Shown: positions 1,453-54,050 of the stretch, one piece after another
Numbering within the stretch: the first letter of the stretch is position 1
How the letters are laid out: the number at the start of each line of letters is the position of its first letter
Assembly (NCBI GenBank): GCA_964016885.1
Contig: OZ024746.1
Span: 67,146,001-67,210,000, forward strand
Direction of reading: 5' to 3'
Source: Eledone cirrhosa
Taxonomy: Eukaryota
DNA length: 64,000 nucleotides
Made by a program: the position numbers and the translations under genes
Notes under the pieces: generated by a model
Told to the model about the DNA's origin: nothing
Database searches by the model: none
The model's input: the letters and a program-made list of their open reading frames with translations, nothing else

Positions 1453-1850
1453 ATATTATAAAGAAAACGAAAAATCAGTGATGCATTATTTCGTGTTACA
1501 AATGTTTCGCCGGCATGTAGCTCGAGTCATGGTCCTTGTATGGATCTGGCTGATTCTACTTCTGCAGGTGCTTTCAGACATGGGTGTTACGTCAAAATTT
1601 GCTGCGGACGTAACACCCGTGTCTGAAAGAACCTGCAGAAGTAGAATCAGCCAGATTCATACAAGGACCATGACTCGAGCTACATGCCGGCGAAACATTT
1701 GTAACACGAAATAAATTAAGTCCAGATGCATCACTGATTTTTTGTTTTCTTTATAATATCTACACTCTACTCTGATGAATATCGAGTGCTAATTTTGGCA
1801 TACCGCCTATGGAAGCACCATAGCTACCACTATACACAACTATATATATA
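1453..1850. mobile_element. Fold-back (inverted) insertion in (TA)n, probable PLE 3' end
   Basis: Arms of about 140-150 bp (1453-1593 and 1607-1759) are near-perfect reverse complements with a 13-nt spacer. The right arm continues as an unpaired tail to (TA)n at ~1840. HHR-like topology at 1618-1708. Confidence 0.7.
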
Positions 1851-1854
1851 TATA

Positions 1855-2048
1855 GGAAAAAGTATGACCCCATCGGCAGAGCTCAAGCCGTTTCGACGGC
1901 TATTTCTGAGTCCAGAAATAGCCGTCGAAACGGCTTGAGCTCTGCCGTCGGGGTCATACTTTTTCCTATTTCCCACTCTACTACCCTAAGTATTGAGTAA
2001 TCTGGTGCGTTATGGTCCATCTGGTTCCTTACCACATTTCCTTTGTTA
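1855..2048 (+). mobile_element. Fold-back PLE-tail family F2, copy 1
   Basis: ~54-bp inverted arms around the loop AGTC (1909-1912), then an unpaired tail to (TA)n. Homologous to 14734-14930 and 39525-39720. Carries the 3' half of a hammerhead: GAAA CGGC-loop-GCCG TC. Confidence 0.8.
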
Positions 2049-2090
2049 TATATATATATATATATATATATATATATATATATATATATA

Positions 2091-2446
2091 TTTCGTTTCT
2101 GAATTTGTTTAACAAGATTCTTTATCTGAAAACGTGTGTTGAAACCGATATTGTTATGCTTTGGGAGGGTCATGTTGCCAATAAGAAACACACGCACCAG
2201 TTGCTTTCACTCCAATTTATTATAAATTAAATTTATAAATTTAAGAATTTATAAATTTCCGGTTGGTTGGTTGGTTGGTTCCATAACCGGACGGTTGTTC
2301 ATATATCGTCAAAGTTCTTTCGTCACACATTCTATGACCTCTTCAGTGACTGGGGATTCTTTTCCTTGTTTTTGTGCATCTCCTTTGTTCTGTCCTACGC
2401 CATCTTGTTTTTTGTTGGCGTGTGTTTCTTATTAGCAACATGACAA
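2091..2446 (-). mobile_element. PLE family A' 3' end (pseudo-LTR, pLTR) with short terminal inversion
   Basis: Homologous to 8360-8690. HHR on the minus strand at 2308-2350. Ends with GTGTGTTTCTTATTAGCAACATGAC, the reverse complement of 2169-2193. Flanked by (TA)n. Confidence 0.8.
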
Positions 2447-2974
2447 TATATATATATATATACATATATATATATATATATATATATATATATATATATA
2501 TATATATATATATATATATATATATATTATAAACCTTTATGCTAGCGGTATCGTCGCGTTGACACGTAATTTAGTAATATATCAGAGAGAAAATAATGGA
2601 AAACAATGATAGAGAAAATAGTGAAAAAAATAAGATACCTGATACTCATCGTTTCTAAGATTTACAACACTTGTCAGATATAAGAACCGTTGTCTATAGA
2701 ACACTATAGATTTATAGCACAATCTTCTTTGGTGTCTTATAGAATTGGTAATCGATTTGTTTATGCGTCATTTGTTGATGAATAGACGAAACATGCTATT
2801 CTTCAGAAAATTTAGAAGTTAAGAATCAAGTGATGTGAGTTCGAATATCGAATGATGGATGTTATTTTTTTTTTTTAAATCAATTTTGTTTACTGTGTTA
2901 CTTTATAGCAGTGATAAACGTATGGAATTATTCTCTAGAAATATATTGTTTCCTTTCATTATTACTTAGTTTTT

Positions 2975-51010: not shown

Positions 51011-51072
51011 TTTTGTCTGATGAAGGCATAGCATATTGTTAATATGATATCCCCGAAATATATATAATGAAA
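51011..51072 (+). ncRNA. Type I hammerhead ribozyme (family B 3' end; mirror copy at ~47114-47175 on -)
   Basis: TTTTGT CTGATGA agg..CATATT-gtt-AATATG..cccc GAAA TATATA TA ATGAAA. Confidence 0.7.
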
Positions 51073-51410
51073 TAAATATGGTTTTATAAATATAGTTTTC
51101 CATTTATTTAATATTGTATATATATACATATATATATATACATATATATATATATATATATATATATATGAAAGAATATATATATATATATATATATATA
51201 TATATATATATATATATATATATATATATATATATATATATATACATATATATATGTATGTATATATGCATATCTATATGTATGTATGTAGATCTATATA
51301 GATGTGTGTGTCTGTGTGTCTTTGTATGTGTTTCGATATATAGATATATTTATATGAATAGAAGTTTGTATATATATATATATATATATATATATATATA
51401 TATATATATA

Positions 51411-52614
51411 TTAGAAATTGGAATAAATGCTCTGAAATAGCGATATATATGTGAAGATAGACATAGAATATTCTATAAGTCTCTAGCTGTGTCATTCTCG
51501 ATAAAAGCACTGGATATGTAATCCTGAAGATTTCTAATAAGAATGAAACGCGTAGGTTACTTCCCTTGCTTTTATCGAGAATCTAATTGTAATACGTGAC
51601 GTATTCTATTCTATAGCGATTAGGTCTTCAAAATGTTTATTATAAACATACAGAATATTCTCGAATATTCTATGTCTATCTTCACATATATATCGCTATT
51701 TCAGAGCATTTATTCCAATTTCTAATTTCTGCCGGACCGGCAACCGCTCTTTCAAACCAGTTCCTGTACACAGCTAAGTATTCTATAAGTCTCTGGCTGT
51801 GTCATTCTCGATAAAAGCACTGGATATGTAATCCTGAAGATTTCTAATAAGAATGAAACGCGTAGGTTACTTCCCTTGCTTTTATCGAGAATCTAATTGT
51901 AATACGTGACGTATTCTAGTCTATAGTGATTAGGTCTTCAAAATGTTTATTATAAACATACAGAATATTTTCGAATATTCTATGTCTATCTTCACATATA
52001 TATCGCTATTTCAGAGCATTTATTCCAATTTCTAATTTCTGCCGGACCGGCAACCGCTCTTTCAAACCAGTTCCTGTACACAGCTAAGTATTCTATAAGT
52101 CTCTAGCTGTGTCATTCTCGATAAAAGCACTGGATATGTAATCCTGAAGATTTCTAATAAGAATGAAACGCGTAGGTTACTTCCCTTGCTTTTATCGAGA
52201 ATCTAATTGTAATACGTGACGTATTCTATTCTATAGCGATTAGGTCTTCAAAATGTTTATTATAAACATACAGAATATTCTCGAATATTCTATGTCTATC
52301 TTCACATATATATCGCTATTTCAGAGCATTTATTCCAATTTCTAATTTCTGCCGGACCGGCAACCGCTCTTTCAAACCAGTTCCTGTACACAGCTAAGTA
52401 TTCTATAAGTCTCTAGCTGTGTCATTCTCGATAAAAGCACTGGATATGTAATCCTGAAGATTTCTAATAAGAATGAAACGCGTAGGTTACTTCCCTTGCT
52501 TTTATCGAGAATCTAATTGTAATACGTGACGTATTCTATTCTATAGCGATTAGGTCTTCAAAATGTTTATTATAAACATACAGAATATTTTCGAATATTC
52601 TATGTCTATCTTCA
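51411..52614 (+). mobile_element. Non-LTR retrozyme-like tandem array: ~3.7 x 310-bp units, four hammerheads, 5' inverted segment
   Basis: CTGAAGA at 51524, 51834, 52144 and 52454 (period 310). Units differ by only a few substitutions. 51411-51473 is an inverted piece of the unit. No ORF; (TA)n on both sides. Confidence 0.88.
51518..51560 (+). ncRNA. Minimal type I hammerhead ribozyme (repeated at 51828-51870, 52138-52180, 52448-52490)
   Basis: GTAATC CTGAAGA tTTCT-aata-AGAAt GAAA CGCG TA GGTTAC. Palindromic stem III ACGCGT; predicted cleavage after GUA (51554). Confidence 0.9.
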
Positions 52615-52619
52615 TATAT

Positions 52620-54050
52620 ATATATATATTTATTAAAATAACAGATTAAAGTTTAAGCAAAGAATCGCTGCTTTCACCCTTAACGGGATCTTCTGAAACT
52701 AACAAAGTCAATCTGTAAACGCAGAACTGTATATTTCAAAAAACTTTGCAACCGGAGTTCGGCTTGTAAACATAAATTGCACAAAACTTTCCTGTATTAC
52801 AGCCCCACATTATACCCTAACGGATAGTACGATCTATACGTGGAAATTTTACGTCTCGATGTGGGAGCTAAGTATATGTTTTGTTTATACCTTTACTTAT
52901 TTGCATAGGTAAGTATATGTTATCCGTATGTTTTGTGAAGCTACTTATACCTTCTCGTACGTATATTTGATTGTTATGGCGTATAATTTTTTTTTATATA
53001 TTCTGGTACATATGGTTCGACTATGTGTATACGGGAGTTTTGCGTCTGTGTGAGTATGCAGGTTCGTACGTATGTAGGGCGTGTGTATATGTGTACTTCA
53101 TGTTTTGGTTGACTTACGTCTCCGAACATTCGTGTATTTACATGTAGGTATGAGTGTGCGCTTGTTATATACGTATTTATTTATTTATATACGTTTATAT
53201 AATTATTTATTTATTTGTATACACGCTTACACACACACATATTTATATGTGCGTGGTTTTGTTTACCTATGGTAAGTTTTTGCGTATGCTTGTGTATGTA
53301 AGTTTCTGTTTGCGTGTATGTTTTTATTTATTTCTATTACTTCTGTATTGTATTTATTTACTTTGTTCTTAACTCCGTAGCGGAAATTCATTCGGTCTCC
53401 TAGTTAGAATTTAGTCTACGACTTCTGCTATACCATTTACGTGGTTTTGTCTTTGCGTGCTATTGTTCTCAACGCTCCACATATGACGTATTATCTTCGT
53501 TTTTTTCGTTCATCGCCATAGAACGTCTCTATGCACCACCCAAGAGAACATTAGTCTACGAACTCTATTATACTATAAACGTGGTTCTGTCTTTGCGCGT
53601 ATTGTTTTTCACCGCTCCTATTAATGACGTATTATATTCGTTTTTTGCGTGTATGGTTAACTTTGCCTTTCATCCTTAGGGGGTCGATAAAATAAAGTGC
53701 CAGTAATACACTGGGATAATTGCTGGCCTTGTGCCAAAAGTAGAAACAATTATATTCGTTTTTTCCCGTTCTTAACCAGCGAACGTTTCCACGAACCAAA
53801 GTATCGTCTTCCTGTCTTCCTCCGGTTGCAACGTTTTTTGAAATATCCAGTTCTGCGTTTACAGATTGACTTTGTTAGTTTCAGAAGATCCCGTTATGGG
53901 TGAAAGCAGCGATTCTTTGCTTAAACTTTAATCTGTTATTTTAATAAATATTTGCTCTACGGTTCTCATATATTTGATATATATTTATCCTTATCGAACC
54001 CTCTTTGGATTTTAGTCTTCAAATTTATTATTATTACTATTATTATTAAT
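52620..54050 (+). mobile_element. PLE family C 3' region with inverted pLTR
   Basis: 52620-52757 is an inverted copy of 53820-53947. From 52759 the sequence matches the end of the family C ORF (SACKHKLHK) and its 3' UTR. A SINE S1 fragment is inserted at 53655-53752. Confidence 0.85.
53877..53927 (+). ncRNA. Type I hammerhead-like motif with U4>A core
   Basis: AGTTT CAGAAGA tCCC-gttat-GGGt GAAA GCA-gcgattctt-TGC TT AAACT. Same core in the copies at ~30131-30180 and ~52650-52700 (-). Confidence 0.6.

Follow-up and report, generated by a model that had tools for sequence, protein, structure and literature searches.

Fold-back insertions of Penelope-like elements with a one-sided tail and partial TA microhomology in a 64-kb stretch of the Eledone cirrhosa genome

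The window analyzed here, a stretch of 64,000 nucleotides of the Eledone cirrhosa genome (contig OZ024746.1, positions 67,146,001 to 67,210,000 of the forward strand), has a GC content of 32% and contains many (TA)n tracts. Adjoining these tracts are 20 head-to-head inverted duplications (“fold-backs”), which are insertions of (TA)n-targeting Penelope-like retrotransposons (PLEs) of the Neptune and Hydra types and of short non-autonomous derivatives. Each fold-back carries extra sequence, the tail, on one arm only, and at the internal end of the tail-less arm the template often has a short alternating T/A run in common with the flanking repeat; judged from sequence comparison, this microhomology is real but partial, and above chance. 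On balance, we favor the explanation that both cut ends of a TA repeat prime on one tandem RNA at two fixed internal sites, that a trailing reverse transcriptase (RT) re-copies this RNA, and that the resulting cDNAs join.

Layout and identity of the fold-back insertions

Thirteen fold-backs had been listed in an original prediction made from the sequence, and all of them hold as head-to-head inverted duplications beside TA runs, with extra sequence on one arm only; self-comparison of the window and end alignments added seven (at 2092, 12346, 17001, 17250, 36546/39472, 51412 and, tentatively, 37920). The 20 fold-backs total 12,954 bases, corresponding to 20% of the window. When inverted matches were counted at distances of up to 5 kb and with a minimum length of 40 bp, the real window gave 22 and each of ten six-mer block shuffles none. 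The arms overlap, as had been predicted, and are 84–100% identical to each other (99–100% in young fold-backs). Because at least one substitution separates the arms in 18 of the 20 pairs (1–12 in the aligned stretch), chimeric fold-back reads in AT-rich DNA, or a comparable sequencing or assembly artefact, are an extremely improbable source, even if the two pairs with identical arms (38674 and 51412) would be compatible with them. Family-specific ends moreover recur at different loci, later insertions have split one of the fold-backs, and the structure has been published for other animals (PMC8557442, PMC3846280).

The 20 fold-backs were grouped into 12 families, A to L (C with C2, E with E2). 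Ends are fixed within a family: they coincide in three of three copies of B, in three of three inverted arms of C/C2, in both clear copies of G and in two of two cases in I, and agree within 1–4 nucleotides (nt) in D. The description of the 13 listed insertions as stemming from unrelated families was overstated, since they reduce to nine families (with three members of B and two each of G and C/C2), E and F have a hammerhead motif in common, and A, B, D, I and J have a common motif in their tails.

One terminus of each fold-back runs 20–91 nt past the inverted repeat; measured from the junction, tails are 32–91 nt long. A full tail on both arms occurs in none of the 20, and 38674 has a partial tail on one arm. 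The “shared rule” that had been proposed for these insertions holds as a layout, but this layout equals the already published structure of an inverted pseudo-long terminal repeat (pLTR) plus tail (PMC8557442, PMC3846280). Miniature inverted-repeat transposable elements (MITEs) and DNA transposons with terminal inverted repeats were rejected as candidates, since the inverted repeats fail to reach both termini and the tail is one-sided. Hammerhead cleavage as the cause of either end was rejected as well, because the arms run through the hammerhead cut site.

The proposed identity of the fold-backs as PLE insertions was borne out by endonuclease open reading frames (ORFs), hammerhead motifs and the published PLE layout. 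Endonuclease-positive PLEs are characterized by one ORF that combines a telomerase-like RT with a GIY-YIG endonuclease at its C-terminus, and four ORF fragments in the window represent PLE C-termini (4901–5671, 8921–9352, 48699–49790 and 56162–56557). One of them, 8921–9352, matched the Pfam GIY-YIG domain (PF01541) above the cut-off, and the other three gave no Pfam match. ORF 4901–5671 shows 54% identity to an RT-domain protein of Octopus vulgaris and 56% to 8921–9352; ORF 48699–49790 matches the C-terminal part of RT-like proteins. According to Craig 2021 (PMC8557442), Neptune elements are marked by a CX2-5CxxC linker before GIY-YIG, a CCHH motif and a (TA)n bias, and Hydra elements, which insert into (TA)n, by a CxCX5C linker, CxxC and CxH near the C-terminus and no CCHH. 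The Neptune signs, a CX4CxxC linker and a C..C..H..H pattern, were seen in 4901–5671 and 8921–9352; ORF 48699–49790 has all Hydra signs, and 56162–56557 has the Hydra-type CxxC and CxH. The clade labels derive from these motifs. ORF pieces occur only in families C, C2, G and I, and the RT core is absent from the window. Families H, J and L were assigned to PLEs by architecture only.

A motif scan detected canonical hammerhead cores in C, C2, D, I and K, variant cores in E, F and G, and partial motifs in A, B and J; in most families the motif sits upstream of the inner end, where the tail-less arm stops. Among the variant cores, at 16827, 27301, 17819 and 53882, U3–A8 was observed in place of C3–G8 (E, F and a K relative), further variants being GCAA for GAAA (E) and A at position 4 (G). 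Family K (51412..52613, +) consists of 3.7 tandem units of 310 bp, preceded by a 62-bp inverted arm bearing the tail; with four type I hammerhead motifs, one per unit, and no ORF, it is retrozyme-like. The end of an older K relative of about 320 bp (17650–18020, −; variant core at 17819) coincides with an internal AT run of 10 nt, which is the longest microhomology observed. The PLE assignment is weakened by families H, J and L, in which neither an ORF nor a complete hammerhead was found (in H and L, no hammerhead at all), by the folding of seven core-containing hammerhead motifs, which was no better than that of shuffles (z −1.3 to +0.3), and by targeted Rfam scoring, which gave 17 bits for K versus a gathering score of 52 and no hammerhead match for family C. 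A whole-window Rfam scan yielded no hammerhead among the 150 of 261 matches listed; nearly all of these were miRNA-like scores on hairpins or microsatellites, below the gathering score.

The two ends of the tail

Microhomology was defined as the alternating T/A run common to template and flank at the tail-less end, with one site per family, and the null was formed by every position of that template up to 40 nt away. Junctions were set by hand; an automated caller misplaced family I, 30107 and 57283, with the conclusion unchanged. The common run comprises 6 nt in E, 5 in L, 4 in A, C, F and G, 3 in B and H, 2 in I, 1 in K and D (2 in the other copy of D), and 0 in J. As the families are partly kin (common tail and hammerhead motifs), all P values are optimistic and set upper bounds on the strength of the following results, which this kinship weakens: microhomology of 3–6 nt occurs in 8 of 12 families, as compared to 1.5 expected for random phase (P = 1e-5) and 3.0 for best phase (P = 0.0015), and omission of the tentative family L gives P = 6e-5 and 0.005, respectively. 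A mismatch-tolerant score over 8 nt amounted to 60 matches versus 36.4 (P = 1e-5) or 48.9 (P = 0.0045) expected; I and K reach 7/8 in this scoring, and D and J stay poor.

The predicted ending of the short arm at an internal TA-like site therefore stands as an enrichment over chance, but not as the sole selector of the site. Exact microhomology is only 0–2 nt in 4 of 12 families, J with 0 nt being a counter-example, and for the seven families whose motif had not been quoted in the original prediction the enrichment is significant for random phase (P = 0.005) but not for best phase (P = 0.06–0.12); both observations argue against primer pairing as a general explanation. Some of the motifs quoted for the junctions include flank bases, the template being TTCCTATT rather than TTCCTATA, and TAATATTGTAAATATA rather than TAATATTGTATA. 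Because equal or longer TA runs within 40 nt were left unused in 9 of 12 families (8 nt at +29 in G, 8 nt at +2 in K, 5 nt at +3 in I), microhomology alone does not pick the site. Between two insertions of D, the endpoint moves by 1–4 nt to the next matching A/T. Lone tail-less copies at 57283–57330 and 17650, which have no inverted partner, stop at the inner site. There is a 4-nt duplication at the TA junction of 30107, and short duplications of template bases at the family G junction (30100–30115 and 54030–54050) suggest primer slippage at initiation.

Fixed sites at TA-like motifs would likewise arise if the TA-cutting GIY-YIG endonuclease of the element cleaved a double-stranded intermediate at the inner TA-like motif and stripped one tail before ligation, without any pairing of primer and RNA. 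Craig 2021 stated that the tail “most likely” results from endonuclease-mediated resolution (PMC8557442), and the Drosophila Penelope endonuclease, as reported in PMC11167929, required tail sequence to cleave. Nevertheless, we regard such resolution as quite unlikely: longer TA runs nearby remain unused in G, K and I, J lacks any TA run at the site, and Frangieh 2024 mapped tail boundaries to RT start sites (PMC11167929).

In 7 of 12 families, the motif ACTC follows the junction on its 3′ side at a distance of 6–12 nt (at +8 in A and B, +9 in D and F, +10 in E, +12 in H, and +7 in I), and G has GCTC at +6. In 5000 random placements, no 4-mer with at least two G/C exceeded five families. In A, B, D, I and J, GAGT, complementary to ACTC, is present 15–20 nt downstream. 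ACTC is a candidate motif for positioning of the inner site, in which it might play a causal role; it was found post hoc and may itself reflect common descent, the essential point being that it stays at a conserved distance from the junction. Its absence from C, K and L is a point against such a role, as are the results of RNAalifold for seven aligned tails (family B being misaligned), in which the ACTC...GAGT stem was invariant, with no covariation or compensatory change, and the situation in G, where GAGC follows about 42 nt after GCTC in two of three tails, the pair having been recognized by eye.

The long arm had been predicted to end at the true 3′ end of the RNA. This is unsupported, since the tail of C corresponds to an ORF start, K ends inside a tandem unit, and the tail boundaries of PAc, a Poseidon element of Anolis carolinensis, are internal (PMC11167929). 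In C, pLTR end and tail form 27 codons from an ATG, indel-free in three of four full-tail C/C2 copies (one base is deleted in 4362), and the tail comprises codons 10–27; in a more distant copy, at 6977, the frame is conserved except for a single stop. The TATAACAATA of the original prediction corresponds to codons Y-N-N-I of this frame. Between the copies at 8361 and 55733, 10 of 17 differences are at third positions (P = 0.027). Against a coding tail, the bias was not significant in two comparisons with 6977, so that one of three pairwise tests is significant. By eye, the start of the C-family ORF had no counterpart in the N-terminus of the O. vulgaris homolog, so that only the codon pattern argues for the frame; outside family C, an open frame conserved across the tail was not evident. 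Both fold-back ends of K are located inside the 310-bp unit. For PAc, reverse transcription was observed in vitro to start at two internal sites bounding the tail (Frangieh 2024, PMC11167929). The best reading of the C/C2 frame, the K unit and this analogy, adopted as a whole with restrained confidence, is that the tail end is a site internal to a tandem transcript.

Proposed priming, copying and joining of the arms

Both arms are produced anew from a single template at every insertion or, at the least, in every subfamily. In the six B arms, no change is confined to tailed or to tail-less arms, and B1 (1855) carries five subfamily changes in each of its two arms, in mirror image; each of two D insertions has its own variant in both arms. 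The use of two templates, which the original prediction had considered to be implied unless there was re-copying, is not required, since the arms of one copy carry that copy's variants. These data also bear on the possibility that a few master hairpins arose once and were copied whole, common ends reflecting descent. The copies of B do have the same turn point and both ends in common, and short hairpin–tail units could be transcribed whole; however, the mirrored changes in B1 and D, the lack of arm-type-specific changes, and the copies of C, C2, D and G, which have the same ends but different turn points, make this origin very unlikely.

In the explanation we favor, each family would have two fixed sites 32–91 nt apart, downstream of the hammerhead motif and internal to a tandem transcript, and the tail would be the sequence between them. 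The GIY-YIG endonuclease would cut both strands of the TA repeat, as was found in vitro for PAc on AT-rich DNA. One 3′ end would then prime at the tail end and the other, presumably in the same event, at the tail start of the same RNA. The inner site might be placed by the cis motif just 3′ of it (ACTC, often as ACTC...GAGT stem), the position being tuned by pairing of the TA primer with 1–6 bases of the RNA. A trailing enzyme would copy this RNA again, and one cDNA would prime with its 3′ end on its counterpart, at a stem-loop or a short stretch of complementarity, to form the head-to-head joint. Overlapping arms, identical at birth, with a tail on one arm would be the outcome. The RT of PLEs is not known to contain an RNase H domain. 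Priming at the two cut ends, a part of the original prediction, proved to be the only single model found to accommodate every one of the 20 geometries, and it also covers the absence of fold-backs with two tails.

The tailed arm is longer by total length in 18 of 20 fold-backs, the exceptions being 38674, which belongs to the 13 insertions first listed (tail-less arm 190 bp versus 129 bp), where the other arm halts 20 nt into a roughly 60-nt tail, and 51412 (1140 versus 62 bp). With regard to 5′ reach, ten fold-backs are near-symmetric (spacer of 0–13 nt), the tailed arm extends further in five and the tail-less arm in four (17250, 30107, 38674 and 51412), and L is unclear. The rule of a long and a short arm thus applies to most insertions by length, but it fails for two by length and for four by 5′ reach. 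Because the tail-less arm extends further 5′ in these four, it is no copy of the tailed cDNA. Family B turns at an identical point in both subfamilies, 14–16 nt 5′ of the hammerhead GAAA, where stem II would lie, and the turn of J has, by eye, the same relation to GAAA. Other families turn elsewhere, often at overlaps of 3–7 nt (8361, 30107, 46980 and 51412, by eye; none at 52630). A unit of about 20 bp is present three times at 9325–9380, at the 5′ truncation point of the long arm of 8361 and exactly at the turn. A (TTTTTA)n-type tract (48140–48340 and 49840–50030) differs strongly in length between the two arms of I, the turn of which uses a similar T-rich tract in the ORF.

The geometry bears on self-priming, in which a cDNA started at the tail end would truncate, fold back and be copied towards the target; the second strand would stop at the inner TA site and anneal to the other TA end, the inner site being a stop and capture point rather than a start. 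This route, proposed for Adineta PLEs from palindromic junctions (PMC3846280), predicts a single tail per fold-back, arms of identical sequence and microhomology to TA, and it agrees with the three B copies turning at the same point in two subfamilies. It would be simpler for 15–16 of the 20 fold-backs, namely those with near-symmetric turns and five more in which the tail-less arm is nested in the tailed one. However, it cannot yield 30107, 38674, 51412 and 17250, the tail-less arms of which hold template missing from the tailed arms, nor does it account for the lone tail-less copies stopping at the inner site without inverted partner, and the tail start of PAc is a true initiation site in vitro (PMC11167929). 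As a general explanation, self-priming is possible but rather unlikely; both routes may operate. Two observations weigh against priming at two sites: for the ten near-symmetric turns, intramolecular self-priming is the simpler explanation, and the PAc initiation sites lack homology to the cut DNA, so that the proposed pairing at the inner site departs from the sole available biochemistry (PMC11167929).

A more specific version of two-site priming can be put forward only tentatively and is, in its entirety, doubtful. Twin priming at two sites of a single RNA would be obligate in TA-targeting PLEs (Neptune, Hydra and retrozyme passengers): an RT dimer would be positioned by a conserved RCTC...GAGY element at the tail start, the TA primer would be aligned by telomerase-like short pairing with occasional slippage, and the RNA would be copied twice, with the cDNAs joined at stem-loops such as hammerhead stem II. 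If true, a single mechanism would explain why these elements prefer microsatellites and carry a tail and an inverted pLTR, and PLEs would be a major source of the short, perfect hairpins within octopus introns.

Individual insertions, genomic setting and known systems

Fold-back A (1457..1840, +) consists of a tail-less arm (1457–1600, −), a 13-nt spacer, a tailed arm (1614–1755, +) and a tail (1756–1840), with a hammerhead-like motif of non-canonical core at 1623. B1 (1855..2046, +) has a tail-less arm at 1855–1908 (−), a tailed arm at 1912–1966 and a tail at 1967–2046, and turns just 5′ of the hammerhead 3′ half (by eye); ends and turn are the same in B2 (14735..14926, −; tail 14735–14814) and B3 (39526..39717, −). 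Family C is represented by 8361..9784 (−), with a tail at 8361–8420, a tailed arm to 9375 (−), a tail-less arm at 9376–9784 (+), the end of a Neptune-type GIY-YIG ORF (8921–9352) and a hammerhead at 9583–9611, and by the added fold-back 2092..2445 (−), with a tailed arm at 2092–2410 (−), a 27-bp inverted arm at 2418–2445 with an internal deletion, and a hammerhead motif at 2346–2318. In C2 (38674..38990, +), the tail-less arm (38674–38863, −) is the longer one and the other arm (38862–38990, +) stops in the tail at a 5-nt ATATA; its arms are identical over 105 bp. Two non-inverted C2 copies with full tail served as references: 4362..5671 (−), with the Neptune-type ORF 4901–5671, for the full C2 tail, and the young copy 55733..55878 (−), 100% identical to the arms of 38674, for the reading of the tail as ORF start. 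The latter was inserted into (AAAT)n, not into (TA)n, within another PLE, and about 12 bp appear, by eye, to be duplicated there.

Fold-back D (14415..14639, −) has a tailed arm at 14415–14560 (−), a tail-less arm at 14567–14639 (+), a hammerhead at 14543–14521 and 2 nt of microhomology. In the added D insertion 36546..39472, 2.65 kb of other sequence separate the tail-less arm (36546–36650, −) from the tailed arm (39308–39472, +); both begin at the same template base and have a variant in common which is missing from the 14415 copy. E (15621..16973, −) comprises a tail (15621–15659), a tailed arm to about 16600 (−), a tail-less arm (16648–16973, +) and a variant hammerhead at 16827, and its relative E2 (12346..12490, −) is old, with arms 86.5% identical. 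In F (27112..27471, +), the tail-less arm (27112–27258, −) is followed by a 1-nt spacer; the variant hammerhead is at 27301 and the tail at 27407–27471. Family G includes 52630..54036 (+), the tailed arm of which (52758–54036, +; tail 53948–54036, variant hammerhead at 53882) starts in the last codons of a Hydra-type ORF and adjoins the tail-less arm 52630–52757 (−), and 30107..30288 (+), where the tail-less arm (30107–30183, −) exceeds the tailed arm (30181–30288, +) by about 50 nt on the 5′ side, with a 3-nt overlap at the turn. In the degenerate G fold-back 17250..17372 (−), the tail and about 11 nt more (−) are followed by an inverted arm of 22 bp that extends further 5′ (partly by eye). 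H (39729..39985, −; tail 39729–39765) has a perfectly palindromic center at 39875/39876. I (46980..51118, −) has a tail at 46980–47069, a tailed arm to about 49800 (−), a tail-less arm from about 49810 to 51118 (+), a Hydra-type RT-thumb/endonuclease ORF (48699–49790) and a hammerhead core at 51017. J (17001..17170, +) has its tail at 17094–17170, and the tentative L (37920..38140, +) combines a 51-bp inverted arm, a spacer of about 60–70 nt and a 55-nt tail.

Further PLE remnants were observed. A tail-only copy of family G lies beside a TA run at 46636–46720 (+), without pLTR upstream. A broken Hydra-type PLE with TA on both sides (55143–57090, −) is homologous to the 5′ part of the 52758 arm, differs in its last 200 bp and has no inverted arm. 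The segment 57505–57663 (+) weakly matches (E 6e-4) a Neptune-type linker and endonuclease start, indicating a further decayed PLE, and a possible decayed hairpin beside a TA run at 32256–32364 (by eye) was left out of the count.

An exon at 35232–35780 (−) encodes a sequence 99% identical to an acetylcholine receptor protein (nicotinic subunit) of O. vulgaris, and a second exon of this receptor lies at about 32713–33348 (−); the first 114 residues of the O. vulgaris protein have no match in the window, the exons for the N-terminus being located beyond it. The region from 35.8 to 64 kb is probably one intron of this minus-strand gene. Eight of the 20 fold-backs fall in this probable intron and would place double-stranded RNA in a neural pre-mRNA; a link of the intronic hairpins to RNA editing can be surmised. 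Hairpin–tail units in TA resemble MITEs or miRNA precursors and may be misannotated as such. The window also contains a dispersed repeat of about 190 bp, probably similar to short interspersed elements (SINEs), with about ten copies of 80–95% identity that are not tied to TA runs (862–1054, 2977–3084, 3210–3395, 29426–29504, 30571–30842, 45287–45436, 53655–53753, 58047–58254 and 59106–59941). A tRNA-like match at the Rfam gathering score (54066–54129, +) is probably the head of a tRNA-derived SINE.

In twin priming of L1 elements, both 3′ ends of the target prime on one RNA and a head-to-head inversion results, the arms deriving from different parts of the RNA and the inner site being variable. 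By contrast, overlapping arms and one constant inner site for each family characterize the fold-backs described here.

Closer similarity exists to endonuclease-positive PLEs, for which Craig 2021 (PMC8557442) described an inverted 5′-truncated copy next to the pLTR, a tail of 30–40 bp often at one end only, and (TA)n targets of Neptune, Naiad and Hydra. Head-to-head palindromic joints and self-priming were described by Arkhipova 2013 (PMC3846280), and the same layout is known from Drosophila Penelope (Schostak 2008, PMC2377424; Goubert 2022). The fold-backs agree with these elements in the inverted, 5′-truncated, head-to-head copy, the one-end extension, the palindromic joint and the (TA)n targets; the hammerhead motifs predicted in the pLTR may be a further parallel. 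In C/C2, pLTR and tail moreover overlap the first ORF codons (9 and 27, as compared to 12 and 22 in Pen2a_Av). Tails of 32–91 nt are mostly longer than those published. The formation of the PLE inverted repeats is stated as open in PMC8557442 and PMC11167929.

With PAc (PMC11167929), our elements would have in common two adjacent internal RT start sites bounding the tail, an AT-rich target, cutting and extension of both DNA strands, and uncleaved hammerhead RNA as template, consistent with arms that cross the hammerhead cut site; PAc has been predicted to be a dimer. PAc belongs to the Poseidon clade, whereas the ORFs of the window are of Neptune and Hydra type, and its starts are located in an AC-rich stem-loop without homology to the cut DNA, whereas the inner site of our elements usually has 3–6 nt in common with the TA flank. 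The formation of inverted arms is unaddressed in the text of Frangieh 2024 as far as it is accessible (PMC11167929).

In a preprint on non-LTR retrozymes (bioRxiv 10.64898/2026.07.22.740005), a derivation of tandem hammerhead repeats from PLEs was argued for. Family K fits this proposal with its tandem 310-bp units, one type I hammerhead each, and lack of an ORF, but differs in also having a PLE inverted arm, tail and TA flanks; with hammerheads that are predicted, these features would provide direct structural support for mobilization by PLE machinery. A recent repeat annotation of O. vulgaris lists 31 recently active PLE families, the accessible part of it making no mention of fold-back structure. 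In the PLE literature consulted, no report was found of TA microhomology at the tail start, the ACTC motif, the absence of two-tailed fold-backs, or tails of up to about 90 nt; older PLE papers, the supplements of Craig 2021 and Repbase may hold such details. The architecture and the internal initiation were already known, and the microhomology, the ACTC motif at a kept distance and the lack of two-tailed fold-backs are, as far as the literature consulted shows, new here. They offer three handles on how PLE inverted repeats form: primer–template microhomology at the inner site, which PAc lacks, a candidate positioning motif at a fixed distance, and geometries which exclude plain self-priming, along with the absence of two-tailed fold-backs.

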